A DNA stretch of 64,000 bases from PVC group bacterium (GTDB taxonomy: Bacteria > Omnitrophota > Gorgyraeia > B26-G9), in NCBI GenBank assembly GCA_024231215.1, contig JAAEQR010000072.1:449210-513209 (forward strand), read 5' to 3'. Below, in pieces: positions 5,018 through 38,567 of the stretch. How positions within the stretch are numbered: the stretch's first letter is position 1; the number at the start of each line of letters is the position of its first letter. Position numbers and translations under genes: made by a program. The notes beneath the pieces were generated by a model. It did not search any database. It saw only the letters and a list, made by a program, of their open reading frames with translations, and was not told the origin of the DNA.

Positions 5018-8000
5018 ATGCGCAACGTAAAAAACTTTTTATATAGTACAATTATAATTTTAGTAGGAATTATTGCATGGCATAGGGTTCTGGATTTTGT
5101 TTTTTTTAAAGCTTATGAACCTGGCTGGCTGATGGCTCGTTACAATCCAAATTTGAGCTTTGACCAATTGCTGCTTAGCCTAATGCGGGCACATGCTTTT
5201 ATCTATTTTTTGTGTTATAAGGTTTTTGGATGGAATCCCATGGGGTGGTATGGGGTAAGTTTAGTTCTACATTTGTTAGCAGCATTGTTGATAGCGTATC
5301 TTACAGGATTTATTACTAAAAGTGAAAAGACCGGGTTTATTGCCGGTCTTTTTTTTGTTGCTAATGTTGCTTATAATGATGTGCTTACCTGGGGCAGTTT
5401 CAATGCATATTATGCTTTTATCATGTGTGCTTTTATTGCTGCTATTTTATTTTTTGGTTATTATCGTAAAACCAGCAATAGAGATTATTATTTGCTTTCT
5501 GTGGTGATGTTTTTTTTAGCCTTGGTTACCCGTGAAACAGCTTTACTTATTCCTATTTTTATTTTTCTTTTTGATATAATTATAATCCACCATTTGAAAG
5601 TGAAAGAGTTCTTTTTTCAGAATAAACGAAAACTGCTTGTATATATTCCATATTTTGTTTTGGCAGTTGCCTATCTTATATTTAGGGCCAAATTTATTTG
5701 CGGACTAAGTGGCGATAGTATGGATGGGCAGGTAAAGCTGGGGATGAAGCTAGTAGCGGAAAAGCAGTATATTTTATTCTTTAGCAGAGTTATGCTGGCT
5801 TTTGGACGTAATTTTGCGGCGCATATTGTGCCGTATGTGTTATTAAATAAATTACCCGCAATATTATATTCTTTGCTGGGTTGGGTGTTTTGGGGAAGTA
5901 TTGGACTTGTTGTCATTGCTGTTCGGAAAAATAAACAGCTTTTTACAGTTTTGTTCTTTGCTTTATTATGGATGAGCATTCAGACTCTTTTTATTTCACT
6001 GGCTATGCCGGCAACAGAGGAAATACTGGCGAGAAAGTATCTTTGGAATACCAGAAGATACAGTTATTATCCATTTTTTGGAGTGGTTTTATTTGGCAGT
6101 GTAATTATTGATCACATTGTTAATGTTATAGCAACAAAAAAGAAAATGTTTCACGGGCGATCGAATGTTCTTTTATGGACTATTGTCTGGGTGATTGTAG
6201 CGGGAAATATTTTAATGATCTGGAACGTTGAAGCTTTTGTGGCTAAGACTGTTTATGATCCGTCTAAAAAGTTTTTTAATGACCTTAAATCTTTTTATCC
6301 TATGCTTCCTGAAGGACTTGCTATTTACCAATATCCTAATGCTTCCGGGTTGTCAGATTTATTCTATGAATGGAATTGGACCAAGGAATTAAAGCATCCT
6401 AATCTTAAGGGGCAGCCTTTTCGCAGTGAAACGCAAATGGCCAGAATGTTTGAAAAAATAGAAAAAAAACAATTTTCTTTTGATGAAATATACTTTTTTG
6501 ATTATAACGATAAGGATGGATTAAGGGATTTTACAAAAGAAGCAAAACATTGGATTGAAAACTATCAAGAAGTAGAGATTTCTCTAAGTCGGGAGATTGA
6601 TTCCTATTTTGTGCTGCCAAAGAAGCGAGGAGCGATTAATATTATTCCGGAAGTAATAATTTCATTAAAAGATGAAAAGATAGCTCCTGTTGAATTTCCG
6701 TATTTTCTAGAAATAAAAATGAAAGCGACAATGATAAATGATCTAAAATTTCCTTTTTGCGTATCAGGAGACCGATTGTTACTGGAATCTGATATTTTGA
6801 AAAATGTTAATATATCTCGTGAAAATCGAGGCGCTATTAAACAATTACCATTGCATATAGGTCAGAGTGTACTGCCGAGTAGCTTACGGCTTGGCATTCC
6901 GGATGGGGAGTCCAGAGAGTTTATAAAACAGGGGATTATGAGTTGTCCGGTAGCAAAAGTAATGAATCAAAAGGATAACAGAGAATGGTTTTTTTGTGAT
7001 TTTGTTAAAGGGCAAGAGCGGATAGCTGAGCCCGGAACACAAGATTACTATTTAATATATAAATATGGGTTTGAAGATACTTATGGAGGGGCAGGGTTAG
7101 TATATCATTTATCCGGAAATGGCACTAATATATATAGTGTGCCCGGGACTATTTATGGTCACGAGGTAGCTGGTTTACAATATGCCAGAGCAGCAAACGG
7201 TGATTTGCCGAGGAAGATTACCCGTAAAGATGATGGGCAGATAGATATTGAATTTGCTTCTGTGTATAATGCGGGGCAGGGATTACAGTTTGGAGTTTTG
7301 TTGAATGAGCCGGTATTGTATTATATCCCTGGCAAAGGGGTGCAGGATATTGCCAAGGGCAAGTATGCAGAAATTAAAGCAGACGGTATAAGAAAAAGAT
7401 ATGAAATTGGTTTAAGCGGAGAGCTAAAAGCCTTGCGGTCATATTGGGGAAATGATATATTGAGGTATCAACCTAAGGCTTTTATCGATGGTAAGATGAC
7501 ACAAATTGTTAAATGGTGCGGATTAGGTACTAATACTCTTACAGTTGAATTTGCGCAACCGCCGCGCAGGGGAGCTAATATATTGATCCCTATGCTTGTA
7601 ACATATGCTCCGAGGCAAGAAGATAATATAATTATTACTTCTGAAGACAAACTGAAAAATAAATTGCATAAGAGTGAGATTGTAAATCCTGAAGTATTAC
7701 GTTCACTTACTATCTATGCTAAAGATAGAAAGGAATTTCTCGATAAAGCTGTTGTTTCTGTGAGCGGGACTCATGAACAATGGCCGGGTGAGCCGTTTTT
7801 GCATTTTTTACCGGACAATCTCATGGATGGGGATTTTGGAGATCGTTCTCAATGGATTTCAGAATCTAAGCCTTCCTGGATTGTTATAGATCAGGGGGAA
7901 TCAAAAAACGTCGGAGCTCTAATCTGGAAGGCAAAAGCTGGTTCGGGGAGAGTGCCCAGTACATATTCGTATTACAGTTCCAATGATGGTAAAGAATGGC

Positions 8001-8554
8001 GCTTTATTAAGAAGGAGAAAGGGAATAATCAAACAGAAAAGATTGATATTTTTCATCCTGCGATAAATGGGCGATATTTTAAAATGGAGATTGAAACAAC
8101 GTCAATGGGTGATTATGCAATGTTGCAGGAGCTTGAGCTTGTAGGAGAAGAAGCGAGTAAAATTTTCACCTACTACCAAATCAGGCAGGAACTTATACAT
8201 GATAGTAAACATTTCACTTCATATATAGGATCAAAAGATGAAATGGGAAACATGCTTTCTCTTGGACTCGATGGGGGATGGGCAAAGCTTTCCTGGCGGA
8301 CAAGAAGTGGTTGGGAAGAAGATTGTTTTATTGAGTTTCCTTATTATGTTGATGGCAAGTACCATGTTTATAGGTTAGATATTAAAGAAGGAGATGTCTA
8401 TGGTCGTCAGGGCGAGTTTTTGAAAAGAAAATTACATGAGCTGCGTCTTGATCTAGGGGAATTTCCGGCAAAATATGAGATAGAGTCGATTAAATTAATT
8501 CCAAAATATAATTTAAGGAGTAATAATGAAAATTCGAATTCCACAGTACGATAA
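5018..8554 (+). CDS. very large membrane protein (1178 aa): N-terminal polytopic domain (GT-C-like), central paralogous domain, C-terminal F5/8 type C (discoidin / CBM32-like) domain
   Basis: Multiple TM helices in the first ~400 aa. Central domain paralogous to the previous ORF. C-terminal region ...FLPDNLMDGDFGDRSQWISESKPSWIVIDQG...INGRYFKMEIETTS resembles the discoidin/F5-8 type C pattern (D-G-[DN]..T.W ... GRY.K). Confidence 0.55.
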   Translation: MRNVKNFLYSTIIILVGIIAWHRVLDFVFFKAYEPGWLMARYNPNLSFDQLLLSLMRAHAFIYFLCYKVFGWNPMGWYGVSLVLHLLAALLIAYLTGFITKSEKTGFIAGLFFVANVAYNDVLTWGSFNAYYAFIMCAFIAAILFFGYYRKTSNRDYYLLSVVMFFLALVTRETALLIPIFIFLFDIIIIHHLKVKEFFFQNKRKLLVYIPYFVLAVAYLIFRAKFICGLSGDSMDGQVKLGMKLVAEKQYILFFSRVMLAFGRNFAAHIVPYVLLNKLPAILYSLLGWVFWGSIGLVVIAVRKNKQLFTVLFFALLWMSIQTLFISLAMPATEEILARKYLWNTRRYSYYPFFGVVLFGSVIIDHIVNVIATKKKMFHGRSNVLLWTIVWVIVAGNILMIWNVEAFVAKTVYDPSKKFFNDLKSFYPMLPEGLAIYQYPNASGLSDLFYEWNWTKELKHPNLKGQPFRSETQMARMFEKIEKKQFSFDEIYFFDYNDKDGLRDFTKEAKHWIENYQEVEISLSREIDSYFVLPKKRGAINIIPEVIISLKDEKIAPVEFPYFLEIKMKATMINDLKFPFCVSGDRLLLESDILKNVNISRENRGAIKQLPLHIGQSVLPSSLRLGIPDGESREFIKQGIMSCPVAKVMNQKDNREWFFCDFVKGQERIAEPGTQDYYLIYKYGFEDTYGGAGLVYHLSGNGTNIYSVPGTIYGHEVAGLQYARAANGDLPRKITRKDDGQIDIEFASVYNAGQGLQFGVLLNEPVLYYIPGKGVQDIAKGKYAEIKADGIRKRYEIGLSGELKALRSYWGNDILRYQPKAFIDGKMTQIVKWCGLGTNTLTVEFAQPPRRGANILIPMLVTYAPRQEDNIIITSEDKLKNKLHKSEIVNPEVLRSLTIYAKDRKEFLDKAVVSVSGTHEQWPGEPFLHFLPDNLMDGDFGDRSQWISESKPSWIVIDQGESKNVGALIWKAKAGSGRVPSTYSYYSSNDGKEWRFIKKEKGNNQTEKIDIFHPAINGRYFKMEIETTSMGDYAMLQELELVGEEASKIFTYYQIRQELIHDSKHFTSYIGSKDEMGNMLSLGLDGGWAKLSWRTRSGWEEDCFIEFPYYVDGKYHVYRLDIKEGDVYGRQGEFLKRKLHELRLDLGEFPAKYEIESIKLIPKYNLRSNNENSNSTVR
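6893..7628. repeat. copy B of the duplicated ~740-bp domain-coding segment (paralogous to 4227-4965)
   Basis: See copy A; about 70% amino-acid identity over ~245 residues, same order and spacing of conserved blocks. Confidence 0.8.
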
Positions 8555-9971: not shown

Positions 9972-12449
9972 TTGTTACCTTTGAGCACAAGAGAGTTGCC
10001 GGATAAGAGAAAAAAAATATCTTTTCTTCTTCTTATTGTTGTGATTTTATTCTGCATTCCTTTTTTTTGGAGTAGTCCTAATCACTATAACCTGGGCGGG
10101 GATGATTCGCGTTTGTATTTATATTCTCCGTATGAGTGGCTGCATAATGTAGCATTGTATTCATGGTTTGATATTTCCGGGATATCTTCGTATAACCCCC
10201 AGCAATTTTCCTTTCCTTTTGTCATATTGCTTGCTTTGTTGCAGAAGATATTTTTCTTTCTTAATATCCAAAAATTAGCTTGGGGGCTAACTCTTTCTTT
10301 TGGATTTTTTTCTATATATTTGTTTATCGAAGAATTATTGCAGGATAAAAATAATCTGAATTCTACTATTTCAGCTGCAATCGGAGGGTTGCTCTATGTT
10401 TTCTTCCCGTTAATATTTTATATAGATTGGCCTCAGCCGCTGTACAATCTATATGCTATTGCGGTGTTTCCATCATTTCTCTGGTTTTTTCTAAAGGCAG
10501 TGAATAATGCAGATGTGAGGTATTTGTTAGGTGGTGCAGTAGTAAGCGCGTTATTTAGTCTGGTGATTGTGAATTTCCCGTGGTTTTTACCTTTTGCAAT
10601 TGGAGCTTTTATTTTTCTTGTGTTGTATTGTTTTTTAATTGAAGAAAATAAAGGTAGGCTAGGCTTTTATTTGCTTTTATATGTTTTGTTTTCGATATTA
10701 TTCAATCTTTTTTGGATAATCCCATTGTTGCATTCTATTCTTTTTGGGGGATTTGCCAGCGAAGCTACTGTAGGCGGTGGAGTTAAAGAAGCTGCATTAA
10801 ATGTTATTCATAGTGTGGCACCGTCGATGAATATTTTTGATACGCTTTGCGGATTATTGAGCAGAGAATTGATTTTTGGTTGGAACTGGCCACAGAAAGT
10901 AATTGCGAAGTACACATTCAACTTTTCCGCTTTTAGCGCGTTGCTTCCAGGGGTTATCTTTTTGTCACTGCTAATCAGGCAAGGGAAGGTAAGAACTAAA
11001 AAATTACTGGTAATTTTTAGTTTAATAACAGTAATCCTGGCTTATTTGCAGACTGTTAATATCGGGGGATGGGGAGTTAAATTATTTGATTGGTTAATAT
11101 ATACTGTTCCTTGGTGGACAATGTTGAGGAATTTCTTTAGTAAAGTACCTATTGCCTATGGCATCTTTTTCTCAATTACAATAGGTATAGCTGTTTTTCA
11201 CGTATTAGAACGGATTAATAAGCAAAAAATAAAGAGAATATTTGTTGCCGGACTTATAGTTGTTATTTTAGTTCAGGCTTTGCCCTTTATTTTTGGAAGG
11301 GTTAATGCTCTGCCTGTCTATAATGCGGATATTCCTTTGAACCGAAATATTATTGTGCCGGACTATTATCGAGAGACTACAGAGTATATCAAAAAATTAA
11401 GGGTAGGGCGAGTGTTGACCCTTCCGATGACGTTTGCGACATGGTCAATTTTTAAAAGCTCTTGTGGGAAAGGCTTATATGTGGGGAGTTCTCCGATAAA
11501 AGTTTTTACGGGTAAGGACGATTTTAATGGGAAGATGGGTTTTGAAAGAATCTCGGGTCTGCCGGAGCTGATTATTGATGCTTATCAGAAAGATGCTAAT
11601 GTATTAGGTTATGTTTTTGGAAAATTAGGTGTTCGCTATATGCTTTATAATACGCAGATGGAGAAATTACCGGAGGTTTTAAAGACAGGATGGTTGTGGG
11701 AATACGAAACACTTTCAAATAATAAAAGCATAAAGTCAATTTTAAGTAGTGTGGCAAATGAAAGGTTGGCTGTTTTTGGGCCTTTAGAAATATATAAGAT
11801 CAATGATGAGTTTTTTCTACCGCATATTTATCCTGCTAAAAAGGCAAGTGTAGTAAAAGGAGATATAAGTGCTTTAATGTCTTTATCTGAGGGTATTGAC
11901 TTGGATAAATCAGATGTTTTATTTTTTGAGAAAAACGAAACGACTAAGGGCAAAGGGATATTCTCGGATGAGGGGAGAATAGAAGGAGGTAATAATCCTG
12001 AAATAGTTTTTAAGAAAATAAACCCCACAAAATTTAGCGTAGAAATCAAAAATGCCAAACATCCTTTCTGGCTGGTATTTAATGAAAGGTTTCATGAAGA
12101 CTGGAATATTTATAAAACACAAATATCCGATGCAAATACTCTTAGAAATGATGAGTTATCCAGTTATTCTCAATTTGGGGTAAAAGAATCAGAATACCGG
12201 CTGCAATTTGCCCCGCAGGATTTTAAATTCCTTTTTTTAAAACCAATGGATTTGCAGCATAAGGTTGCTAATGCTTATGCGAACGCATGGTATATAGAGC
12301 CTGAAAACTTTGAGAAAAGTAATAATTTTTCTTTTGTCATATACTTTTTGCCGCAAAGCTTTTTTTATTTAGGATTACTAATTTCTGTTTTTTCGATGCT
12401 TTTGTCGGTGATTTTCATGATTGTTTATAGTATTAAAAGGAGAAGCTAG
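9972..12449 (+). CDS. large polytopic membrane protein, putative GT-C-fold glycosyltransferase (825 aa), TTG start
   Basis: RBS AGGAG at 9961-9965, TTG at 9972. About 12 hydrophobic helices. D44-D45 (GGDDSRLY, nt 10101-10106) directly after TM1, as in Emb/Aft-type GT-C enzymes. Large C-terminal soluble region with a final C-terminal TM helix. Confidence 0.5.
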   Translation: MLPLSTRELPDKRKKISFLLLIVVILFCIPFFWSSPNHYNLGGDDSRLYLYSPYEWLHNVALYSWFDISGISSYNPQQFSFPFVILLALLQKIFFFLNIQKLAWGLTLSFGFFSIYLFIEELLQDKNNLNSTISAAIGGLLYVFFPLIFYIDWPQPLYNLYAIAVFPSFLWFFLKAVNNADVRYLLGGAVVSALFSLVIVNFPWFLPFAIGAFIFLVLYCFLIEENKGRLGFYLLLYVLFSILFNLFWIIPLLHSILFGGFASEATVGGGVKEAALNVIHSVAPSMNIFDTLCGLLSRELIFGWNWPQKVIAKYTFNFSAFSALLPGVIFLSLLIRQGKVRTKKLLVIFSLITVILAYLQTVNIGGWGVKLFDWLIYTVPWWTMLRNFFSKVPIAYGIFFSITIGIAVFHVLERINKQKIKRIFVAGLIVVILVQALPFIFGRVNALPVYNADIPLNRNIIVPDYYRETTEYIKKLRVGRVLTLPMTFATWSIFKSSCGKGLYVGSSPIKVFTGKDDFNGKMGFERISGLPELIIDAYQKDANVLGYVFGKLGVRYMLYNTQMEKLPEVLKTGWLWEYETLSNNKSIKSILSSVANERLAVFGPLEIYKINDEFFLPHIYPAKKASVVKGDISALMSLSEGIDLDKSDVLFFEKNETTKGKGIFSDEGRIEGGNNPEIVFKKINPTKFSVEIKNAKHPFWLVFNERFHEDWNIYKTQISDANTLRNDELSSYSQFGVKESEYRLQFAPQDFKFLFLKPMDLQHKVANAYANAWYIEPENFEKSNNFSFVIYFLPQSFFYLGLLISVFSMLLSVIFMIVYSIKRRS

Positions 12450-20485: not shown

Positions 20486-20896
20486 ATGATTAATAAAAAA
20501 GGTTTTACATTGGTTGAGTTGTTGATGGTCGTTATCATCATTGGTATTTTAGTTACAATCGCTGTTCCTAACTATTTTAGGTCAATTGAAAGAGCAAAAG
20601 GTGGGAAGGCAAAAGCGGCAATAGATGTTATTAGAAAAGCATCTATACAATATAGAGCGTTGAATGATACTTTTCCACCTACTGATATTACTGAGTTAGA
20701 TGGTATGGAAATTCCGGGTAATATGACAGCAGCTACTCCTTTTGATGATGGAGATTGGCAGTATACAGTATCTGGAGATGCGACAACTGTATCAATTGTT
20801 GCAACGAGGAACGCGGGAGAACACAGCACAGAGACTTTAACGATGGACGTGGATGGAACGATCACGAATAGTGCTACTCCTAATGAATGGGATTGA
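20486..20896 (+). CDS. type IV pilin / prepilin with N-terminal cleavage-methylation domain
   Basis: MINKKGFTLVELLMVVIIIGILVTIAVPNYFRS: G-F-T-L-[V]-E class III signal peptide with Glu+5 and hydrophobic N-terminal helix. Confidence 0.85.
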   Translation: MINKKGFTLVELLMVVIIIGILVTIAVPNYFRSIERAKGGKAKAAIDVIRKASIQYRALNDTFPPTDITELDGMEIPGNMTAATPFDDGDWQYTVSGDATTVSIVATRNAGEHSTETLTMDVDGTITNSATPNEWD

Positions 20897-21042: not shown

Positions 21043-22125
21043 ATGCGGATAATTGCTATTGCTAATCAAAAAGGAGGATGCGGTAAAACAACAACAGCCA
21101 TAAATTTCTCTGCGTGTTTAGCTCAGGCAAAAAAGAATGTTTTGTTGATAGATTTGGATCCCCAGGGACATGCGACTTTAGGCTTAAATATAAAACATCA
21201 GGATGTGGATAAGAGCATGTATCATGTTTTGACACCGCAATCCGGTAAAAAAGTCAGACTGGACGAAATTATTTTACCTATTTCTCAGAATTTTGATCTA
21301 GCACCGGCGGATATTCTTTTGTCTGCGATTGAACAAGAACTTTCCGGTAAACCGGAACGGGAAGCTAAGCTGTATCAGGCAATTTCACTTATGGTAACAA
21401 AAAAAACCTATGATTATATTGTTATTGATTGTCCTCCTAGTTTGGGGCTTTTAACTTTTAATGCTTTGCGTGTTTCTGGGGAAGTTATTGCGCCTGTAGA
21501 GACCGGGTTTTTCTCTGTGCATGGGGTAAGTAAACTTTTAGAAATAGTAGATGTGATTGGAAAACGTTTAAAATGTGATATTGCTGTTAAAGCATTAATC
21601 ACATTATTTGATCGTCGCACTAAATTTTCTCAGGAAATAAAAGATGATATTTACAATCATTTTTCCGGACAGGTATTTAAATCTATAATTAATACAAATG
21701 TGCGATTAAAAGAAGCGGCAAGTTATGGTATGCCGGTTATTGCCTATGATAAGCGTTGTCGGGGTTCAGAAGATTATATGGCCTTGGCTAAAGAGGTAAT
21801 ACGTAAATATGATTGGACTAAACCAGAAACAGTGACGGAAACTGTTGGCGGGCCGCAACAAAGCAAAAGTGGAATATTGTTTACATATAGTTCTACCGAA
21901 GCAGGTTCTGTACAGATTGCAGGAGATTTTAATAACTGGGCAGCAGACCAAAAAGATAAATTAGAAACTACAAAAAAGGGTGTTTGGGCTAAAGTTTATA
22001 ATTTGAGGCCGGGGCGCTATCGTTATAAGTTTATTGTTGACGGACAATGGGTTACAGATCCTAATAATCCACAGACAGAAGCTGATGAAATTGGGAACTT
22101 AAATTCTTTACTAGAAATAAAGTGA
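21043..22125 (+). CDS. ParA/MinD-family deviant Walker-A ATPase fused to a C-terminal AMPK-beta / CBM48-type glycogen-binding domain
   Basis: IIAIANQKGGCGKTTTAINFSACLA (KGGxGKT deviant Walker A with signature Lys). ParA-like DLDPQG and VIDCPPS blocks. C-terminal ~85 aa FTYSSTEAGSVQIAGDFNNW...KGVWAKVYNLRPGRYRYKFIVDGQWVTDPNNP fit the AMPK-beta GBD/CBM48 pattern. GGGGAGG RBS. Confidence 0.75.
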   Translation: MRIIAIANQKGGCGKTTTAINFSACLAQAKKNVLLIDLDPQGHATLGLNIKHQDVDKSMYHVLTPQSGKKVRLDEIILPISQNFDLAPADILLSAIEQELSGKPEREAKLYQAISLMVTKKTYDYIVIDCPPSLGLLTFNALRVSGEVIAPVETGFFSVHGVSKLLEIVDVIGKRLKCDIAVKALITLFDRRTKFSQEIKDDIYNHFSGQVFKSIINTNVRLKEAASYGMPVIAYDKRCRGSEDYMALAKEVIRKYDWTKPETVTETVGGPQQSKSGILFTYSSTEAGSVQIAGDFNNWAADQKDKLETTKKGVWAKVYNLRPGRYRYKFIVDGQWVTDPNNPQTEADEIGNLNSLLEIK

Positions 22126-22142: not shown

Positions 22143-23072
22143 TTGTCTATGAGCGATTCTAAAAAACTAGGTAAAAGTATAGAAGATATTTCGTATTTGT
22201 TTCTTTCTCCCTCTGGAGAAGATTCTTCCGAACCGGATGATTCTGGGCAGCAGGAAGAAAAAAGCACTTCTATTTTAGAGACTCCAATTAAGAGTATCTG
22301 CATGGTTGGTGGTGAATTTTCTTTTCTTGATGCTTTTCTGGTAATAAATTTATCGTTGGCACTGGCTCGTTTGGGCATGCGTATCGCAGTTGTCGATTTA
22401 GAACCGGAACGTCCTTGTTTGAATTTCTTTTTGGGAACTGATGGTCAAAAAGAAGATTCTAATAATATGAACACAGTTATCAAAGAAGGGCCTTTAGGTG
22501 TTAAACTTATTAGTTTAAATACATCTGCGCTTACGGAACTCTCAAACACCGCAAAGAATAGCAAACTGATTTCTCAATTGAATAAGATAGAAGAAGATGT
22601 GGATTTGATCCTGGTTAATGTTATGCAGCGTAATTTAATGAATATGCATGAGTTGTTGCCTGAGCAGATAAGAGAGTTTTTAGTGCTTACTTATCCGGAT
22701 AAAAATAAGATGATTGAATCTTATCGGACGATGAAGATGATTTCTCAACGTAATCCGTTAACTAAGATTGGTGTGGTTGTCGCTGAGGTAGATCACATGT
22801 ATGAGATAGATGCTGTTTATGATAAGATGTCCGGGGCAGTCAGGAAATTTTTAGATAAAGAGCTTTATAAGGGTGGTTTCTTATTTAAGATCAAGCAGGA
22901 TCTTGATGTTAATGCGACTATTGCATCGTTTTACGATGCAGATCTTACTGCTTGTATTTCAAATATAGCTCAGATTGTTGTTCTACGATTGAATTTAGGA
23001 GAAAATATTGTTTCAAAAGAAGCTTTTTTCAAGAAAATGATTGGCGGATTTAACGCGCAAAGGAAGTTATGA
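22143..23072 (+). CDS. degenerate ParA/MinD-fold paralogue lacking the P-loop (putative pseudo-ATPase partner)
   Basis: SICMVGGEFSFLDAFLVINLSLALARLGMRIAVVDLEPE aligns to the ParA N-terminus (ViaV.SgKGGvGKTT.A.NLa.aLa..Gk+VllIDlD), but GKGGxGKT is replaced by GGEFSF. 18-nt gap after the ParA gene. Confidence 0.45.
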   Translation: MSMSDSKKLGKSIEDISYLFLSPSGEDSSEPDDSGQQEEKSTSILETPIKSICMVGGEFSFLDAFLVINLSLALARLGMRIAVVDLEPERPCLNFFLGTDGQKEDSNNMNTVIKEGPLGVKLISLNTSALTELSNTAKNSKLISQLNKIEEDVDLILVNVMQRNLMNMHELLPEQIREFLVLTYPDKNKMIESYRTMKMISQRNPLTKIGVVVAEVDHMYEIDAVYDKMSGAVRKFLDKELYKGGFLFKIKQDLDVNATIASFYDADLTACISNIAQIVVLRLNLGENIVSKEAFFKKMIGGFNAQRKL

Positions 23073-23746
23073 CCACTATTTTTCGCAAAGCACAAATAGA
23101 TAGAGATAAATTAAGAGATGTAATATTAAAAAACCCCGGAGATATTCAGTCGGAACTTGGTTTTATTGATTTTCAGTTTGGAACGGCAGAAGAAGGGGTT
23201 ATAGATTTCTTGGGTGTAGATAGTACCGGAAGACTGGTTATTATAAATTTCGATACAAAAGAAAACGATGAATTGTTAGTAACGGCATTGAGTCAGATGC
23301 GCTGGTTGAAAAAAAATGAAAACCTTGTGAAGCGGGTATTTTTTAGTGAAAATGTTGATTTCAATCAAGATCCCTTGATCCTGCTTATTTGTCCGGGGTT
23401 TTCCAGGAAATTAATTTCTGCGGCTAAAGAGCTGAGCGGGCATGATCTGAGATTTGTCCAATTTCAATATGTTATCTCGGATGCCCAGGATGCAATATTA
23501 TTTGAGGATATATTTAGCCAGCAGAAACCCGAGATAGAAGATCTTCCAATGCAAAATATTGAAAGTTTAAAGCCGCCAACAATTTTAGAAGAAGTGAAAG
23601 TAACAGATAATTCTATAGTAGATACTACTGTAGAGCTAACAGAAATATCTCCAGAGCAAGAGGAGATTATTTCTCTGACACAGCAAGAGATTGCTGAATT
23701 TATGGATTTCGATAAAATTTTAGAAGAAAAACAGACTTCGGATTAA
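23069..23746 (+). CDS. hypothetical protein, possible PD-(D/E)xK nuclease-like core with strongly acidic C-terminal tail
   Basis: ATGA overlap with the upstream gene. VIDFLGVDSTGRLVIINFDTKEND resembles the D...(D/E)xK strand pattern of restriction-endonuclease-like folds (NucS/YraN-like). C-terminal 90 aa is rich in E/D. Confidence 0.3.
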   Translation: MTTIFRKAQIDRDKLRDVILKNPGDIQSELGFIDFQFGTAEEGVIDFLGVDSTGRLVIINFDTKENDELLVTALSQMRWLKKNENLVKRVFFSENVDFNQDPLILLICPGFSRKLISAAKELSGHDLRFVQFQYVISDAQDAILFEDIFSQQKPEIEDLPMQNIESLKPPTILEEVKVTDNSIVDTTVELTEISPEQEEIISLTQQEIAEFMDFDKILEEKQTSD

Positions 23747-24642: not shown

Positions 24643-25689
24643 ATGAAAAAAACCGCAGTTAAAAAAAGTAAATCAACAAAAATTTCAAAGGCTAAATCAA
24701 AATCTGTTGCAAAAACAAAGAAAACAATTTCTCGACGGACGAATGTGAAAAGTGCAGCAAAATTGGTGAAAAACAAAGTGGTAAAACCAGTGCACTCTTC
24801 AGTGGAAACAGAAGTTTTTCCCGCTTTAGCTGAAGGTAAACAGCAGGTAGGAGAAAGTAAGTTTTTTCGGCGGCCAGCGGGAGTTCAGGTTCAGGAAAGA
24901 GATACTTATGAACTACCTGCCGAATATGGCGATACTCGTATTGTAATCCAGGTTCGTGATCCATATTGGATCTATTCATATTGGGAAATTAATGCTGATA
25001 AATGGGCTGGGTTACGCCAGGAATTTGGGGATGTATTAAATTCTGCTAAGCGCATGCTTCGGATCTATGATATTACCGGTGTTATTTTTAACGGGAATAA
25101 TTTTAACAGCTTTTTTGATATCGAAATTAATGATTGCGCAAGTACTTGGTACATTAATGTTGGAACCCCAGGCAGGAGTTATTGTGTAGATATCGGGTTA
25201 TTATTATCAGATGGTAAGTTTATTACTTTGGCGCGTTCAAATTGTGTGACGACTCCATTGGATGGTCCTAGCTCAATTACAGATGAGGAATGGATGGTGG
25301 TAGAGGATGATTTTAATAAACTTTATGGTCTCTCTGTTGGTTTAGGCGTGGGGTTAAGTTCAGCTGATATAAAAAGAAAGATTACGCAAAGATTACAAAG
25401 TGATATCTCTTCCGGGGCAATATCTTCATTTGGTAGTCCGGTTAAAAAGATGGATCAAAAGCGTGGGTTCTGGCTGGTGGTTAATACAGAGCTGATTGTA
25501 TATGGTGCTACAGAACCTGATGCTAAAGTAACGGTTCAGGGCCGCCCGATACAACTGAATAAAGAGGGTACATTTAGCTTGCGTTTTGCGCTTCCCGACG
25601 GAGAACAGACAATCCCGGTAAAAGCAGTTTCCTCAGACGGGGGAGAAAAACGGGTAATTACCCCGATTGTAAATAAGAAAACAATATAA
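24643..25689 (+). CDS. DUF4912-domain protein with a lysine-rich histone-H1-like N-terminal tail
   Basis: N-terminal 50 aa is K/A/S/T-rich (KKSKSTKISKAKSKSVAKTKKT...). Core block RIVIQVRDPYWIYSYWEIN matches the DUF4912 family, which is typically encoded next to GH57 enzymes. Confidence 0.6.
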   Translation: MKKTAVKKSKSTKISKAKSKSVAKTKKTISRRTNVKSAAKLVKNKVVKPVHSSVETEVFPALAEGKQQVGESKFFRRPAGVQVQERDTYELPAEYGDTRIVIQVRDPYWIYSYWEINADKWAGLRQEFGDVLNSAKRMLRIYDITGVIFNGNNFNSFFDIEINDCASTWYINVGTPGRSYCVDIGLLLSDGKFITLARSNCVTTPLDGPSSITDEEWMVVEDDFNKLYGLSVGLGVGLSSADIKRKITQRLQSDISSGAISSFGSPVKKMDQKRGFWLVVNTELIVYGATEPDAKVTVQGRPIQLNKEGTFSLRFALPDGEQTIPVKAVSSDGGEKRVITPIVNKKTI

Positions 25690-25716
25690 GTTATAATATA
25701 GATATATAGTGCCAAA

Positions 25717-25752
25717 GGGGACGGATATAAAACCGTCCTCTTTTTGATTTTT
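25717..25752 (+). terminator. rho-independent terminator
   Basis: GGGGACGG-ATATAAAA-CCGTCCTC hairpin, followed by TTTTTGATTTTT. Confidence 0.55.
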
Positions 25753-25876: not shown

Positions 25877-27457
25877 ATGGAAAAAGGGTATTTATGTATT
25901 GTTTTGCACGGACATTTGCCATATGTGCGGCATCCGGAACATGAGGATTTTTTAGAGGAAGACTGGCTTTACGAAGCAATTACCGAAACTTATATACCTT
26001 TGATCAATGTTTTTGAAAAGTTGATAGATGATAATATTGATTTTCGGATTACAATGGGACTTTCTCCGACGCTTATTACGATGCTTATGGATCCGTTATT
26101 GCAAAGAAGGTACTTAAAGCATTTAGAGAGTCTTATCGAATTGGCCACTAAAGAAGTTGAAAGGACACAGTGGCAGCCGGAATTTCACAAACTTGCATTG
26201 ATGTATCTGGATAAGTTTAAGCTCACGCGCCATGTTTTTGTGGATAAATATAACCGCAATATCATTCAGGCGTTTAAGAATGTTCAGGATGCTGGTAAGC
26301 TGGAGATTATGACTTGCGGTGCTACACATGGGTTTTTTCCTCTTATGCATGTGTGCCGGGAATCGGTCAGAGCCCAGGTTCGCACAGCAGTAGATCAGTA
26401 TAAAAATGTTTTTGGTCGTCCTCCCAGAGGAATTTGGCTGCCGGAATGTGGTTTTAACCCGGGTGACGATGAGGTTTTGAAAGAAAGTGGTCTGCGTTTC
26501 TTTTTCGTCGACAGTCATGGGATATTGCATGGCTCACCACGGCCTAAATACGGTGTTTTTGCTCCGGTTTATTGTAAGTCAGGGGTTGCCTGTTTTGGCC
26601 GTGATATTGAATCTTCAAAGCAGGTATGGAGTGCGGTAGAAGGGTATCCGGGAGATTATAATTATCGCGAGTTTTACCGGGATATCGGTTTTGAATTGGA
26701 TTATGAATATATAAAACCGTATATTCACAGTGATGGTATTCGGGTTAATACTGGGATGAAGTATTATAAAATTACCGGAGAGACCGATGATAAACAGGCT
26801 TATGTCCCGGAGACAGCTATGCAAAAAGCTGCGGACCAAGCTGGTAACTTTATGTTTAACCGGGAGAAACAAGTCGAAGCTCTTTACGATATGTTAAAAA
26901 AGAAACCGATCATTATTTCTCCCTATGATGCTGAATTATTCGGCCATTGGTGGTATGAAGGGCCTGATTGGCTTAACTTTTTAATGCGCAAGATTGCCTG
27001 TGACCAAAAAACAATAAAGATGATTACTCCTTCGGAATATCTGGAGAAATATCCTAGCAATCAGGTGATTACGCCTTCAATGTCTACCTGGGGATATAAG
27101 GGCTATAATGAAGTTTGGTTGGAAGGTTCAAATGACTGGATTTATCGTCATTTGCATAAAGCTTCGGATAGAATGAGTGAATTAGTAAGATCATACCCGA
27201 AGGCCGGAGGCATTACTTTAAGGGCATTAAATCAGGCTTTACGGGAACTATTGCTGGCACAGAGTTCTGATTGGGCATTTATTATGAAGACCGGAACACA
27301 TATTCCTTATGCAGTAAAGAGAACAAAAGATCATTTGCTTAGATTTAATAAGCTTTATCATAATATTAAGTCAAGAAATGTGAATGAGTCATGGCTTAAT
27401 GATCTTGAATATACGGATAACATTTTTCCGACAATTGACTATCGTTTTCATTCATAA
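25877..27457 (+). CDS. glycoside hydrolase family 57 enzyme, most likely 1,4-alpha-glucan branching enzyme
   Basis: N-terminal CIVLHGHLPYVRHPEHEDFLEEDWLYEAITETYIPL is the GH57 branching-enzyme signature (HGHLPYV...). 526 aa, consistent with GH57 GlgB. Confidence 0.8.
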   Translation: MEKGYLCIVLHGHLPYVRHPEHEDFLEEDWLYEAITETYIPLINVFEKLIDDNIDFRITMGLSPTLITMLMDPLLQRRYLKHLESLIELATKEVERTQWQPEFHKLALMYLDKFKLTRHVFVDKYNRNIIQAFKNVQDAGKLEIMTCGATHGFFPLMHVCRESVRAQVRTAVDQYKNVFGRPPRGIWLPECGFNPGDDEVLKESGLRFFFVDSHGILHGSPRPKYGVFAPVYCKSGVACFGRDIESSKQVWSAVEGYPGDYNYREFYRDIGFELDYEYIKPYIHSDGIRVNTGMKYYKITGETDDKQAYVPETAMQKAADQAGNFMFNREKQVEALYDMLKKKPIIISPYDAELFGHWWYEGPDWLNFLMRKIACDQKTIKMITPSEYLEKYPSNQVITPSMSTWGYKGYNEVWLEGSNDWIYRHLHKASDRMSELVRSYPKAGGITLRALNQALRELLLAQSSDWAFIMKTGTHIPYAVKRTKDHLLRFNKLYHNIKSRNVNESWLNDLEYTDNIFPTIDYRFHS

Positions 27458-34218: not shown

Positions 34219-35880
34219 ATGCTGACTTTTTATAAAAGTTCGGTAGGGATTTATATAGGCCCTAAATCAATACAGTTGGCTCAGTTGAAGTCAGTGGCCG
34301 GCCGTATTCAATTGACTAACTTTGTTCACGTTGATATTCTCGAGGATGAAATTAGCTCTGAATCAGCTACCCAAGAGTCTCTCATTCATAATGCTCTCCG
34401 CAAAGCCGTTAATAAAGCTAAAATTGATCTAAAAAAAGTTAATACTGTACTTATGCCTGGAATGGTGTTGTTGCGCTATTTCCAAATGCCTAAGATTTCT
34501 GCCGAAGAGATGGAAGAAGCAGTTCGATTTGAAGCAAGGAAATATATTCCTTTTCGTTTAGAAGAAGCAGTAACCGGATTCTATATTCTTAAAGATGATC
34601 CGGAAAACAGAAAAGTAGGGATTCTTTCTTTAGTTACCAAAGAAGAATCTATAAAAAATCATTTATCTGTCCTGAATAAAGTAAACATCAATCCAGTAGC
34701 AGTGGAAACTGCGTCTTTTGCGCTTATCCGTCTTTTAGAATATTCTCAAGAAATAGAAAAGGAAGAGTCGAATGTAGTAATATACATTTATGCTCAGAGA
34801 GTAAATATTGTTATTTTAAAAAATGGAGTACCGTATTTTGTAAGAGATATCTCTTTGGGCAGAAGAGAAGAATGGCTAGATGATGAGACCGCAGCATTAC
34901 TTTTGGAGGATGGTGGAGAGATGTCTGATAGTCGGATGGCTATTTTAGAGAATCTCTTAAGTGAACTTCGAATTTCCCTTGAATATTATAAAAAAGAATT
35001 AGGAAAAGAGCAAATAAATAAGGTGATCTTGTGTGGTGAAATAGATGATTTTGATGATTTGGAAGTTGTTGCTCAAGCGGCACAAGAAGAACCGGACGCT
35101 GAATCACCTTTATCTGTATATTTGAAAAAGAAATTGAACTTACCGGTTGTTACCATAGATCCTCTTAAAACCATTCAAACTCCCAAAGCAAAACCTTTGC
35201 CATATACATTTCCGATGCTGGCAATAACCGTTGGTGCTGCGCTAAGAAATCTTACCAAATCCACAGTAGAAATAGACCTTTTTAAAGCGCGGAAAAAGAC
35301 AAGTATAAAAAAGAAGATTTTTATTAATAAAATGATGGTTATTGAAGGGTCAGCTTTGCTTATAAGTCTTATTGTTCTGTTTTTTCTGTTTTCCATTTTT
35401 GTTTCAAATGAAAAAAGTCTTTTGGAAAAAGAAAAACAAAATAGGCCTAAGTTTATGGAGCTAAGCCATTTTAAAAATAAACAGTTGAAAGAGGGCGAAA
35501 AGCAGATTGATAAACGCTTAAAAAAATACAAAGCAATGGTTTCAAAAAGAGTTTATCTTACCCCTAAATTAAATGTTTTAGCCAAATCTGTCCCCAAGGG
35601 TATCTGGTTCTCAGACTTAAACTATGGTGTGATAAAGATTCCTGGGAAAGGGAAGCAAAAGATAGGAAAAATTTTAAAGTTAAGTGGCAGGGTTTTTGTT
35701 GAGAAAAAAGGAACAGAGATTGAAATAATAAATAAATTAACAGAGGATTTGAAGAAGAACGAAGACTTTTTTGAGGGCTTTAAGGTTATAAAGACAGGTT
35801 CTGTAAAGAGAGAAGAATATATGGTCATCCCTGTAATGGGATTTTCCTTGCAGTGTTCTTCGGATATTTCAGGACAATAG
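34219..35880 (+). CDS. pilM: type IV pilus assembly protein PilM fused to a PilN-like TM/periplasmic module
   Basis: N-terminal ~350 aa actin-like ATPase fold, PilM pattern (IGPKSIQLAQLK...). Single TM MMVIEGSALLISLIVLFFLF at aa ~378-397, followed by a ~150-aa periplasmic region as in PilN. Confidence 0.7.
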   Translation: MLTFYKSSVGIYIGPKSIQLAQLKSVAGRIQLTNFVHVDILEDEISSESATQESLIHNALRKAVNKAKIDLKKVNTVLMPGMVLLRYFQMPKISAEEMEEAVRFEARKYIPFRLEEAVTGFYILKDDPENRKVGILSLVTKEESIKNHLSVLNKVNINPVAVETASFALIRLLEYSQEIEKEESNVVIYIYAQRVNIVILKNGVPYFVRDISLGRREEWLDDETAALLLEDGGEMSDSRMAILENLLSELRISLEYYKKELGKEQINKVILCGEIDDFDDLEVVAQAAQEEPDAESPLSVYLKKKLNLPVVTIDPLKTIQTPKAKPLPYTFPMLAITVGAALRNLTKSTVEIDLFKARKKTSIKKKIFINKMMVIEGSALLISLIVLFFLFSIFVSNEKSLLEKEKQNRPKFMELSHFKNKQLKEGEKQIDKRLKKYKAMVSKRVYLTPKLNVLAKSVPKGIWFSDLNYGVIKIPGKGKQKIGKILKLSGRVFVEKKGTEIEIINKLTEDLKKNEDFFEGFKVIKTGSVKREEYMVIPVMGFSLQCSSDISGQ

Positions 35881-35899
35881 AGTAATTTTATAATAAGGA

Positions 35900-36445
35900 T
35901 TGAGAAATATGATAGGGTCAGGGTTTTCTTTACCTAAAGAAATTAAAAACACATTAGCTATTGGTGTTACTATTTTTGTTGTTGTTCTCTTTTTTGGCGG
36001 GCGGTTTATATATAAACGGAGTTTGAAGAAATTAATCGGATACAAAAAACAACGTTCTCGTGTAGAATTGGAGAATAAGGTTGGAAAAAAACTAGCTGAA
36101 CTGCAAAAGATTCGTGAGAATATGCCTATAATTAAAGAAAGTGCTCATTTTTTATCGGAAGTTGCGAAAGTAGCGGGTGCGCTTAATATGAACATGGTTT
36201 CAATATCAGCTCAACCGGTTGAGAGAAGAAAAGATATGGTGAAATTTTCCGTGCAGATGGAACTGGATACCACATATCATCAACTCGGGGCGTTTATTAG
36301 TAAGATAGAAGGGGGCGATTTATTTGTCAACGTGGATGCATTGGATATTAGGTCTAAATCTAATCAGGAAACAACGAAGGCTGCGATTGTAGCAGAGATA
36401 ACTGTGCATACCTTTTATTTGACAGATACTGATTTGGAGAAATAA
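35900..36445 (+). CDS. pilO: PilO-like type IV pilus inner-membrane assembly protein
   Basis: N-terminal TM (LAIGVTIFVVVLFFGG), coiled-coil, ~100-aa C-terminal domain. Position between pilMN and pilP/Q. Confidence 0.5.
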   Translation: MRNMIGSGFSLPKEIKNTLAIGVTIFVVVLFFGGRFIYKRSLKKLIGYKKQRSRVELENKVGKKLAELQKIRENMPIIKESAHFLSEVAKVAGALNMNMVSISAQPVERRKDMVKFSVQMELDTTYHQLGAFISKIEGGDLFVNVDALDIRSKSNQETTKAAIVAEITVHTFYLTDTDLEK

Positions 36446-36915
36446 TGAGGAAAACATTTGCAATTTTACTTACAGTTATATTTATTTTTTCGCTAGCAGC
36501 ATCTATTGATGCTGCTCCTAAAAAGAGTAAGAAGAAAAGTAAAAAAGAAACGTCAAAAAACATCGGTAAAAAACAACATGGTGCAATAAAATACACAGGT
36601 TTTGAGGCAAAACGTGATCCATTCGGTGTGCCAGCGATAATTGAGAAGATGCTTCTAAAGCCAGATATAGCTATTGGTGCGGGGCAAGAAGAAGTAATTA
36701 AACTTCCATCGATATTTGTGCAAGGGATTATCTGGTCTAAAAGAAGGCCTCAGGCTATTGTAGATAATAATGTGCTGAAGGTGGGCGATTATATTAAAGA
36801 ATTTGAGATAAAAGAAATAAAAAGAAAAAGCATTGAATTATTTTATAAAGGAAAGACATTTTCTGTGCCTGTAGCAGGTACAAGTTCTACAAGTAAAAGT
36901 AAAAGTAAAAAATAA
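36445..36915 (+). CDS. PilP-like periplasmic protein with signal peptide and K/S-rich low-complexity segments
   Basis: Signal peptide MRKTFAILLTVIFIFSLAASIDAA. Small beta-rich C-terminal domain. Position immediately upstream of the secretin. Confidence 0.4.
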   Translation: MRKTFAILLTVIFIFSLAASIDAAPKKSKKKSKKETSKNIGKKQHGAIKYTGFEAKRDPFGVPAIIEKMLLKPDIAIGAGQEEVIKLPSIFVQGIIWSKRRPQAIVDNNVLKVGDYIKEFEIKEIKRKSIELFYKGKTFSVPVAGTSSTSKSKSKK

Positions 36916-36932
36916 AGATAAGGAGTGTAAAG

Positions 36933-38567
36933 ATGAAAAGGATTTTCAGGTTACTGGTATTTGTTTTATGCCTATGCCTTATCGGGGTTTTGACTCCATT
37001 GCCGATGCTTTTAGCGCAGGCTACGTATGAGATTGAAGACGATGCTGATATTTCAGAATCTGAACTGGAAGATGATGGATTGGTATCGTTGGATTTTAAG
37101 GATGCGAATCTAAAAGATGTCTTAAAAGTCTTTTCACAACAGTCTGGCTTAAATTTTGTGGCAACACAAAATATTCAGGATAGACCGGTAACTCTTTACA
37201 TGGAAGAGGTTAAAGTTGAGAATGCATTACAGGCGTTACTAGCCTCAAATAATCTAGGTTTGGAACAGTCTCCGGGGAGCAATATTATTATTGTTAAGGC
37301 TCAGCCTGTTCCCCCGGTACAAACAAAAACTAAAGTGTATAAAATGCGTTATTTTCACGGGAACGTTTCTCCCGGACAATATCTTATGCAAAAGGGAAGT
37401 GTTGCTCAGGGGAGCGGGATGAATTGGGAAGCGATTATACGTCCTTTATTGAGCGAAGTAGGCACTTTGGTGAATTATGCTAATTTATTGGTTATTACTG
37501 ATGTTCCCGCTAGATTTAAACTTATTGACCAGGTGATCGCGGAGATTGATCGGCCGATTCCTGAAGTAATGTTAGAAGTGGAATTGATTGAAACAACTTC
37601 GGATTTCTTAAAAGATGTGGGGGTAAAATGGGGCAAAGAATTTGCTAAATTTACCGGGCCTAGTACTATTAGCTCGATGCCTTATGCTCATTGGAAAAAA
37701 CCTGGTAATGAAGGGTATATGCTACCAAGCAGTATGGCGGATGGTACACGTTTTCAATACGGATTGATGAGTTCTGCAGGGCTTAGTTTTCTTCTGGAAA
37801 TGCTTGAATCAGATACCAGTACAAAATTTTTATCAAAACCGAGAATACTTTGTCAGGATCGGGAATGGGCAGAAATCAAAATAACAGCGAATCAGATAGT
37901 TTCAATTAAGACTACGGTAACAGAGACAACTACGGAAACAGAAGTAGAAAGAATGGAAGTAGGAACAATTTTAAGGATTGTGCCGTTAATCAATGAAGAA
38001 GAGGGATTTGTATCATTGCTCTTAGAGCCTAGTATTTCACGACCAAAAGATTCTCCATTTACAGCTCCTGCGGCAATGGGGGGAGCAAATTATGTTGATC
38101 CGCAAAAACGCAGTATGAGAACAACGGTTATGATTAGAGATGGCGATACGGTTGCGGTAGGAGGTTTTATTACTACAGAAGACCAGGAGAGTTCGACTAA
38201 AGTTCCTTGGTTAGGTGATATTCCTTTATTTGGGATGTTTTTTAGACATAAGTCAATAGACAGGATAGATAAAGAGCTTATGATTTTTATTACGCCTAAG
38301 ATTATACGGCCGACAGATAGGATGGAGATGTGGGTTGATAATGTATCTACAGGCGGGGAACAATCAATGGCGGCTAAGCCTGTTGAAAAAGAAGATAAAT
38401 CTGAAAAGCTAATAGAAAAACTTAAGATCGAATCTAAAGCTAAACAAGAACCGGTAGCAATCAAACCCCAGCCGGTTAAAGCGCTTCCCTTTAGAGAGCA
38501 GGACGATTTAAAGTTAGATCTTACAATGCAAAGCCCGGGAATGATCGGTGTAGATTTATTAAAGTAA
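36933..38567 (+). CDS. pilQ: type IV pilus secretin PilQ
   Basis: Signal peptide. Secretin C-domain RDGDTVAVGGFITTEDQESSTKVPWLGDIPLFGMFFRHKSIDRIDKELMIFITPKII. Confidence 0.85.
   Translation: MKRIFRLLVFVLCLCLIGVLTPLPMLLAQATYEIEDDADISESELEDDGLVSLDFKDANLKDVLKVFSQQSGLNFVATQNIQDRPVTLYMEEVKVENALQALLASNNLGLEQSPGSNIIIVKAQPVPPVQTKTKVYKMRYFHGNVSPGQYLMQKGSVAQGSGMNWEAIIRPLLSEVGTLVNYANLLVITDVPARFKLIDQVIAEIDRPIPEVMLEVELIETTSDFLKDVGVKWGKEFAKFTGPSTISSMPYAHWKKPGNEGYMLPSSMADGTRFQYGLMSSAGLSFLLEMLESDTSTKFLSKPRILCQDREWAEIKITANQIVSIKTTVTETTTETEVERMEVGTILRIVPLINEEEGFVSLLLEPSISRPKDSPFTAPAAMGGANYVDPQKRSMRTTVMIRDGDTVAVGGFITTEDQESSTKVPWLGDIPLFGMFFRHKSIDRIDKELMIFITPKIIRPTDRMEMWVDNVSTGGEQSMAAKPVEKEDKSEKLIEKLKIESKAKQEPVAIKPQPVKALPFREQDDLKLDLTMQSPGMIGVDLLK

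Follow-up and report, generated by a model that had tools for sequence, protein, structure and literature searches.

The window analysed here is a stretch of 64,000 nucleotides from a PVC group bacterium of the Omnitrophota (GenBank contig JAAEQR010000072.1, positions 449,210 to 513,209), and the gene of interest lies at its positions 22143-23072. The encoded protein, referred to below as pseudo-MinD, has the predicted fold of a MinD-family ATPase, lacks the motifs of the nucleotide site, and begins with a short peptide resembling the one by which ParB stimulates ParA. The gene follows directly on that of a ParA carrying a CBM48 domain, as the initial annotation of the window had noted. The best reading, held with moderate confidence, is that the protein acts as a nucleotide-independent adaptor, giving a ParB-type activating peptide to the adjacent Soj-type ParA. 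This reading is built on (i) the fold, (ii) the motif losses, (iii) the conservation of the N-terminal motif, (iv) the synteny of a three-gene cassette, and from these we infer every interaction and the cargo.

The open reading frame (ORF) at 22143-23072 is real, and has 309 amino acids when counted from the TTG given in the ORF list. The ATG at 22149, which gives a protein of 307 amino acids, is the likelier start because the homologues share the register M-x-x-x-K-K-L-G, with K5-K6 aligned when residues are counted from this ATG. A 307-amino-acid NCBI protein, 'MAG: MinD/ParA family protein [PVC group bacterium]' (MAG, metagenome-assembled genome), is identical to it (100% over 99% of the length) and is encoded on a 708-kb contig. 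The two peptides that the initial annotation quotes are confirmed, MSMSDSKKLGKSIED as residues 1-15 and SICMVGGEFSFLDAFLVINLSLALARLGMRIAVVDLEPE as residues 51-89. The likeness to known ATPases extends well past the ~40 N-terminal residues: with HMMER, the structures of FleN and FlhG (the FleN structure being 5j1j) match residues 48-245 at E 2e-6 to 7e-6, archaeal MinD is matched too, and Pfam CbiA is found on residues 66-231 at 3.6e-5, slightly below its gathering score.

An AlphaFold2 (AF2) model computed from 23 homologues reaches a predicted template modelling score of 0.70. Its predicted local distance difference test (pLDDT) values are mostly 75-90 over residues 50-215 of the core, with a dip near residue 105, and fall below 50 for residues 1-47, which are disordered apart from a short helix at residues 13-19; a second helix is formed by residues 295-308. 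When the model is compared with the PDB by Foldseek, the top match is FlhG (4rz2, E 7.5e-12, TM 0.68-0.70), followed by MinD, FleN, BchL/NifH and Soj. The model thus predicts a SIMIBI-class MinD/ParA fold, which bears out the superfamily assignment made at the outset. The further claim that the protein is a paralogue of the upstream ATPase is not upheld: BLASTP aligns only 23 residues of the two, at E 0.026, and the nearest relatives are FlhG, FleN and MinD.

Within this fold the elements of the nucleotide site are gone. The sequence GGEFSFLDA falls exactly on the GGKGGVGKT of FleN, where the signature Lys is replaced by E58, the P-loop Lys by D63 and the P-loop Thr by A64. The Walker B Asp is N159 in the window copy and Ser, Asn or Gly in almost all of the Omnitrophota relatives. 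In switch I, D85 is kept and the second Asp is E87 (D85-x-E87), where the family consensus is DxD and the Omnitrophota have VVDMDE; Nitrospirota members have lost the switch-I acidic pair too, yet they keep the N-terminal motif and the cassette. The motifs were audited in an alignment of 76 degenerate members together with FleN and three intact relatives, and GK[ST] occurs at the P-loop position in none of the 76, so that the absence of the P-loop, first noticed in the window copy, holds throughout. Judged from this alignment, the loss of Walker A is a family trait and marks a conserved pseudo-ATPase, not a pseudogene. Since the P-loop and the Walker B Asp are both lost, the core is most likely unable to bind or hydrolyse ATP. 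The right label is MinD-fold pseudo-ATPase, neither ParA nor FlhG, because the Walker A motif of ParA and MinD is missing and so are the DQAxxLR helix and the genetic context of FlhG.

The family is broad. It comprises 42 clusters at 90% identity, all of ~305 amino acids and all from Omnitrophota where a name is given, while at 50% identity the N-terminal motif is present in 37 clusters; at least five phyla are represented overall. A profile search over 1.84 billion representatives returned 2,024 hits; among the top 148 of these, 31 have the N-terminal motif without Walker A, 6 have the motif together with an intact KGGTGKS, and 99 are ordinary MinD/FlhG proteins without the motif.

By alignment, the N-terminal peptide is by far the most conserved portion of the protein. 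Residues 6-22 have a mean pairwise identity across phyla of 73%, whereas the linker reaches 10%, the core 24% and the C-terminal tail 25%. The family consensus, K-[KR]-L-G-[KR]-G-L-E-D-I-S-[HY]-L-F-L-S, is near-invariant within the family alignments, and its central basic residue is invariant as K or R. A similar string, [KR][KR]xG-L-G-[KR]-G-L-[DE]-A-[LI]-[FLI], is present close to the N-terminus of 108 out of 120 retrieved ParB proteins; its central residue is K in 62 of them and R in the other 46. The core common to pseudo-MinD and ParB is LG[KR]GL[DE]x[LI] after basic residues, with coincidence of the hydrophobic positions 1, 5 and 8 and of the central K/R. The initial annotation had pointed to a Lys-bearing N-terminal peptide of the kind found in ParA partners, and this idea gains from the match to the ParB-type core LG[KR]GL[DE] in the very part of the protein that is most conserved. 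When 1,493 ORFs are ranked with a hidden Markov model (HMM) of the ParB motif, motif-bearing proteins take 28 of the top 29 places, each at E 1-8 with six residues aligned. A 25-amino-acid consensus of the peptide has no match among PDB sequences, and a literature search for LGRGL or LGKGL strings gave nothing relevant.

Several properties of the ParB peptide are described in one paper (PMC12462528). The peptide alone binds ParA and stimulates it, becoming helical upon binding, and its basic residue contacts a pocket of ParA formed by Y81, E82, D110 and E117. The residue at the centre of the motif is Lys in about half of ParBs.

The motif is also found on a second, unrelated protein encoded near the same ParA. 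Nine of 15 DUF4912 orthologues of the Omnitrophota carry K[KR]LGKGL[EK]DIS[HT]LF at residues 41-63, downstream of a Lys/Arg-rich tail; these nine make up the whole set of long forms (at least 476 amino acids) apart from that of locus L005. The DUF4912 protein of the window, with 348 amino acids, has the basic tail without the KKLGKGLEDIS motif. Present on two unrelated proteins, the motif behaves like a portable docking peptide, as far as its distribution goes.

The upstream protein has the features of a Soj-type ParA. Pfam finds AAA_31 (4e-52), AMPK1_CBM (PF16561, 4e-17) and CBM_48 (4.5e-6) on 21043-22125, in agreement with the earlier identification of this gene, and the deviant Walker A is intact (KGGCGKT). 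The best PDB match is 8ray (2.5e-55), which we take to be a D60A construct of Myxococcus xanthus ParA; Soj of Thermus thermophilus and Helicobacter pylori come next. Two invariant residues of the peptide-binding pocket are kept (Y81 as Y60, E117 as E99), and so is the DNA-binding Arg (R238 as R221). The C-terminal domain aligns to the CBM of the AMPK beta subunit (4y0g, 5e-11), with FNNW and YKFxVDGQW conserved. The ParAs of the cassettes have two unusual signatures, KGGCGKT, with Cys where Soj has Val, and DPQ[GA]H, whose His takes the place of Asn64, a catalytic residue in M. xanthus ParA; both are found in the ParA of the window and in those of L023, L025-L028 and L030-L035, the exception being L037 with KGGSGKT.

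The cassette is conserved far beyond the window. One genome per GTDB species was scanned for the locus, which gave 27 loci (identified here by L numbers), and the ORFs called in them were matched to the proteins of the window. The order ParA, pseudo-MinD and a third gene, ds225, is found in all Omnitrophota loci in which the ParA position is covered (L004-L019), L020 excepted. The same triplet occurs in Zixibacteria (L022, L024), in Gemmatimonadota (L023), in four Nitrospirota (L025-L028) whose ParA is without CBM48, and in a Pseudomonadota MAG (L030), where the linker of pseudo-MinD is more than 100 residues longer and the N-terminal motif is untouched. Two unclassified MAGs carry the cassette, one contig of which (L029) ends before the third gene, and the triplet recurs on two more metagenome contigs (L034 and L035). 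In the named phyla outside Omnitrophota and on these two contigs, the neighbourhoods are unrelated. Identity across phyla is 46-53% for ParA and only 26-30% for pseudo-MinD. The ParA genes of the Nitrospirota cassettes (at ~6000-7000) come directly after a MerR-like gene, and the encoded ParAs end in a short tail that is conserved, ...EAEKYLGPILIEEIL....

A Soj-type ParA of the same clade also accompanies relatives of pseudo-MinD that carry the N-terminal motif and an intact Walker A. In L031, ParA is followed by the MinD-like protein, with neither CBM48 nor a NucS-like gene; in L032, L033 and L036 a helix-hairpin-helix protein stands between the two; in L037 the order is ds225-like, MinD-like, ParA. 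The helix-hairpin-helix protein, which has acidic repeats, replaces the NucS-like protein (L032 5027-5944, L033 5174-5944, L036 3354-3830). Altogether, ParA is adjacent or one gene off in every sufficiently long locus except L020, in at least five phyla and several neighbourhoods. Because the relatives with intact Walker A adjoin ParA as well, gene order marks ParA as the constant partner of the N-terminal motif, in a pairing that is older than the loss of the P-loop.

The association with glycogen is narrower. The GH57 branching-enzyme gene, which ties the locus to glycogen metabolism, directly follows the cassette in three loci of other phyla (L021, L023 and L024, of Zixibacteria and Gemmatimonadota) and comes after PgeF and DUF4912 in Omnitrophota. 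The Nitrospirota cassettes have neither CBM48 nor a GH57 gene, and for this reason glycogen would be the cargo or matrix in certain lineages only, not an inherent part of the cassette.

In the AF2 model of the third gene product, ds225, the N-terminal domain (residues 1-152) has pLDDT values that are mostly 85-95; residues 156-200 are disordered, and a helix at the C-terminus is formed by residues 205-222. Foldseek matches the model to the nuclease domain of EndoMS (5gke, 4e-6) and NucS (2vld, 6e-6). In the profile alignment, N-F-(D/S) stands where NucS has its catalytic E-L-K, and an invariant acidic triad is lacking. What is conserved across phyla is the C-terminal peptide L-[TS]-x-E-E-I-A-E-F-M-x-F-D, which reads SDEELSALLE in L030. 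This tail resembles, on our comparison, the 'EIDAL' peptide of FliM/FliY. For binding to FlhG, the FliM peptide is both required and enough, and its binding to the FlhG monomer does not depend on nucleotide (PMC11407121). The start of ds225 overlaps the stop of the pseudo-MinD gene by four nucleotides (ATGA) and the gap between ParA and pseudo-MinD is 18-24 nucleotides, a spacing that would fit co-translation.

In the mechanism proposed, pseudo-MinD would descend from an FlhG/MinD-like ATPase, the core of which was retained as a nucleotide-free scaffold. The layout of FlhG appears to be kept, in that a flexible linker joins an N-terminal effector peptide to the MinD-like core and an amphipathic helix forms the C-terminus; the ParB-type peptide K-K-L-G-K-G-L-E-D-I stands where FlhG has its DQAxxLR helix. 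This peptide would dock on the ATP dimer of the adjacent ParA(-CBM48), and docking would stimulate the ATPase and the release of ParA from DNA, as the ParB peptide does. Pseudo-MinD would therefore be the ParB-like partner within a three-gene positioning cassette. Its core probably recruits ds225 through the L-T-x-E-E-I-A-E-F tail, and attachment of the complex to a surface, the membrane or some other, may fall to the FFxxL helix at the C-terminus. The CBM48 on ParA and the GH57 gene of the locus make glycogen particles the probable cargo or matrix in this organism, kept in place with respect to the nucleoid.

Several points weigh against this adaptor model. The likeness to ParB spans ~6-8 residues only, and the HMM values of E 1-8 are not significant singly; the motif-bearing proteins are all homologous in the motif, which makes them effectively one observation. 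Beyond the core the motif diverges, running D-I-S-H-L-F here and A-L-F in ParB, and the window's own copy reads LGKSIE, not LGKGLE. The EIDAL likeness of the ds225 tail is an analogy. In L020 (QNCH01000202.1, 436-2549), pseudo-MinD and ds225 stand directly after the pilin-like gene with no ParA-CBM48 between. In classical systems it is the cargo that carries the activator, whereas in this cassette the CBM48 that would bind the cargo belongs to ParA, which makes the geometry of any ratchet less obvious. On the side of the receptor, two of the four pocket residues are not conserved in the upstream ParA (E82 is H61, D110 is L92; PMC12462528).

A broader reading, which we put forward only tentatively, is that the cassette represents a new class of ParA positioning system, in which two proteins share out the work of ParB. 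The adaptor would bring the activating peptide, ds225 or, in the variant cassettes, the helix-hairpin-helix protein would be the anchor on DNA or cargo, and with the CBM48 of Omnitrophota, Zixibacteria and Gemmatimonadota, glycogen particles would be distributed over, or tethered on, the nucleoid.

The initial annotation had left two roles side by side, a heterodimer with the active ATPase or its regulation. Regulation is the part that is favoured, through the N-terminal peptide and not the core, while pairing through the ATP-sandwich interface, from which signature Lys, P-loop and Walker B Asp have all disappeared, is unsupported. If the dead core and the active ParA-CBM48 did pair at the canonical sandwich face, half-active, capped or poisoned ParA dimers would result; the common fold superfamily, the adjacent and co-conserved genes, and the retention of both switch-I acidic residues in Omnitrophota (VVDMDE; D85 and E87 in the window copy) are all compatible with such an arrangement. 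It is nevertheless improbable, given that the kinship is remote (the 23-residue BLASTP match at E 0.026) and divided between the Soj and FlhG/MinD subfamilies, that Nitrospirota proteins without switch I still have the N-terminal motif and the cassette, and that the core evolves fast, with 24% identity against the 46-53% of ParA, unlike a co-evolving dimer face, the constraint being seated in the N-terminal peptide. The same peptide could also serve as a tether only, if the protein is a landmark anchored by the FFxxL helix at the membrane or the pole, where ParA would be sequestered but not stimulated, much as pole-associated scaffolds capture free ParA. This helix recurs across phyla and in the relatives with intact Walker A, it resembles the membrane-targeting helix of MinD/FlhG (PMC12826062), and in ParB, binding of the peptide is separable from stimulation, as with R13A (PMC12462528). 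A landmark of this kind is rather unlikely all the same: the central basic residue, which ParB needs for stimulation, is invariant as K or R, the hydrophobic moment of the C-terminal tail is not among the protein's highest, and MinD/FlhG normally bind the membrane only through ATP-driven dimerisation (PMC12826062), most likely impossible here.

The identity of the cargo is a separate matter. The cassette could be directed at DNA, either in a ParABS-like segregation with a 'split ParB' or in a nuclease-based defence, with pseudo-MinD bridging ParA to the NucS-fold protein and glycogen being secondary. The NucS/EndoMS fold of the third gene product points this way, as do its replacement by a helix-hairpin-helix protein in the variant cassettes of L032 and L036, the Nitrospirota cassettes without CBM48 and glycogen genes, and weak PADLOC matches of the NucS-like protein to PDC-S18/S11 (5.6e-7). 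The loss of the catalytic E-x-K and the want of an invariant acidic triad make nuclease defence unlikely, and the locus belongs to syntenic housekeeping DNA rather than to a defence island; no centromere-like repeats were seen, though none were searched for. The DNA-directed reading is given a low probability, and being a statement about cargo it is compatible with the adaptor role of pseudo-MinD. A defence system as such was rejected: PADLOC returned nothing for pseudo-MinD and weak candidate singletons for the NucS-like protein, PHROGs gave nothing useful, and the synteny is that of housekeeping genes. The loss of Walker A and Walker B might finally be taken for the decay of a functionless MinD/FlhG remnant. 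Intact ORFs of ~300 amino acids in 42 clusters (90%) and 37 clusters (50%), spread over at least five phyla with invariant motifs, synteny and translational coupling, leave this next to no likelihood, and the pseudogene reading is ruled out by conservation.

The closest known systems each share a part of the arrangement. FlhG/FleN/YlxH is the best match by sequence and fold and has the same three-part layout: in FlhG, the partner GTPase FlhF is stimulated by the N-terminal enhancer helix (DQAxxLR), and a membrane-targeting helix forms the C-terminus (PMC12826062). A docking site for an acidic EIDAL-like peptide is possibly common to both. Unlike FlhG, pseudo-MinD is without Walker A and B, the locus has no flagellar genes or FlhF, and the neighbouring NTPase is a Soj-type ParA. 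DQAxxLR, as defined in PMC12826062, occurs in none of the aligned members, whose counterpart in the window copy is KKLGKSIEDISYLFLS; an FlhG orthologue is ruled out by the lack of this motif, of the P-loop and of a flagellar context.

With ParB (Spo0J), pseudo-MinD has in common the string [KR][KR]..LG[KR]GL[DE]x[LI] at the extreme N-terminus, a disordered linker after it and a gene beside that of a Soj-type ParA (PMC12462528). It differs from ParB in having no ParB/Srx CTPase, helix-turn-helix or dimerisation domain, in a motif that runs DIS[HY]LFLS and not ALF, and in a MinD fold as the carrier. Searched against the ParB-family domains of Pfam and NCBIfam, the 22143-23072 protein gave no match. 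Another MinD/ParA-family domain with a non-canonical nucleotide site, and a role in localisation rather than as a motor, is that of TadZ/CpaE. In TadZ, which is part of Tad pilus loci, nucleotide binding is kept and a receiver-like domain forms the N-terminus. No kinship of TadZ with pseudo-MinD was seen beyond the superfamily. To our knowledge, the peptides of McdB, PomX/PomY and MinE are not of the LG[KR]GL type. These are likewise non-ParB partners, encoded next to the ParA/MinD ATPase that their N-terminal region engages (PMC11407121; PMC7993993; PMC13170346).

The features of the locus are collected in Table 1. The neighbours in the window are a pilin-like gene, ParA-CBM48, ds225, PgeF, DUF4912 and GH57, and three homologous loci (45-62% identity) have the order pilin-like, ParA-CBM48, pseudo-MinD, a protein of 221-231 amino acids, PgeF, DUF4912, GH57 and UppS. 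Nearly all Omnitrophota loci have the gene of the small type IV pilin-like protein (20486-20896 in the window, 136 amino acids, with an N_methyl motif) directly upstream of ParA-CBM48; the window also contains, at 34219-38567, a separate cluster for type IV pilus assembly (PilM to secretin). Just past the DUF4912 gene, at 25714-25743, is the best terminator-like hairpin of the region, with an 11-bp stem and a T-rich tail, which suggests that the genes from ParA to DUF4912 could form one transcription unit apart from GH57. The boundaries of the operon rest on gene spacing and this hairpin, because a scan of the sequence for promoters found sites no more numerous than in shuffled sequence. Elsewhere in the window, two large ORFs (2436-5003, 855 amino acids; 9972-12449, 825 amino acids) have no Pfam match at E <= 1e-5; their neighbour, a protein of 1178 amino acids at 5018-8554, has an F5/8 type C domain. 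GC skew is strongly positive across the whole window (0.06-0.34 per 2 kb) and the plus strand holds 48 of the 51 ORFs of at least 150 amino acids, which fits a single replichore whose genes are strongly co-oriented.

Table 1. Positions of the pseudo-MinD gene, its parts and the associated genes (window coordinates, unless a locus number is given)
Feature	Position	Strand	Evidence
P-loop-less MinD/FlhG-fold protein (pseudo-MinD)	22143..23072	+	HMMER, AF2, Foldseek, motif audit
ParB-type N-terminal short linear motif KKLGKSIEDISYLFLS, residues 7-22	22161..22208	+	conservation, ParB comparison
Acidic, Ser/Pro-rich linker (residues 23-48), disordered, of variable length and sequence	22209..22286	+	pLDDT <50, 10% identity
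Degenerate MinD/FlhG-like core, residues 49-285	22287..22997	+	HMMER to FleN 5j1j, Foldseek to FlhG 4rz2
GGEFSFLDA in place of Walker A GKGGxGKT	22308-22334	+	HMMER alignment, 76-member audit
C-terminal helix EAFFKKMIGGFNAQ, residues 295-308, FFxxL motif	23025..23066	+	AF2, conservation
Soj-type ParA (residues 2-255) with AMPK-beta-type CBM48 (~275-360)	21043..22125	+	Pfam, PDB match
Third cassette gene ds225, 225 amino acids, predicted inactivated NucS/EndoMS-type PD-(D/E)xK fold (residues 1-152)	23069..23746	+	AF2, Foldseek
Conserved C-terminal acidic helix of ds225, L[TS]xEEIAEFMxFD	~23672-23716	+	profile conservation
DUF4912 protein with Lys-rich N-terminal tail	24643..25689	+	Pfam DUF4912 1.5e-37
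GH57 alpha-glucan branching enzyme	25877..27457	+	Pfam Glyco_hydro_57 5e-42, BE_C 9e-40
Motif-bearing DUF4912	L002 8598-10481		
Motif-bearing DUF4912	L007 5806-7350		
Motif-bearing DUF4912	L008 9592-11130		
Motif-bearing DUF4912	L010 9523-10965		
Motif-bearing DUF4912	L011 7758-9230		
Motif-bearing DUF4912	L012 4209-5891		
Motif-bearing DUF4912	L014 4637-6487		
Motif-bearing DUF4912	L015 5384-6919		
Motif-bearing DUF4912	L018 9580-11451		

ParA/MinD ATPases position chromosomes, plasmids, carboxysomes, flagella and chemoreceptor arrays, and a 2024 review of their cargoes makes no mention of glycogen (PMC11407121). Among open-access papers and bioRxiv preprints, no publication was found on ParA-CBM48, on a glycogen-directed ParA system or on a P-loop-less MinD/ParA partner. 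The annotation 'MinD/ParA family protein' wrongly implies ATPase activity in dozens of uncultivated lineages, for which the adaptor model, if true, would supply a function. An ATPase of the ParA/MinD family would then be recyclable as a nucleotide-free adaptor for a member of the same family, and the ParB peptide would be a portable module that can be grafted on unrelated proteins, here a MinD fold and DUF4912. The adaptor model would also offer a concrete candidate for the organisation of glycogen particles in bacteria, one that lends itself to testing. If the split-ParB glycogen system is true as well, it would be the first ParA/MinD system dedicated to a polysaccharide storage granule.

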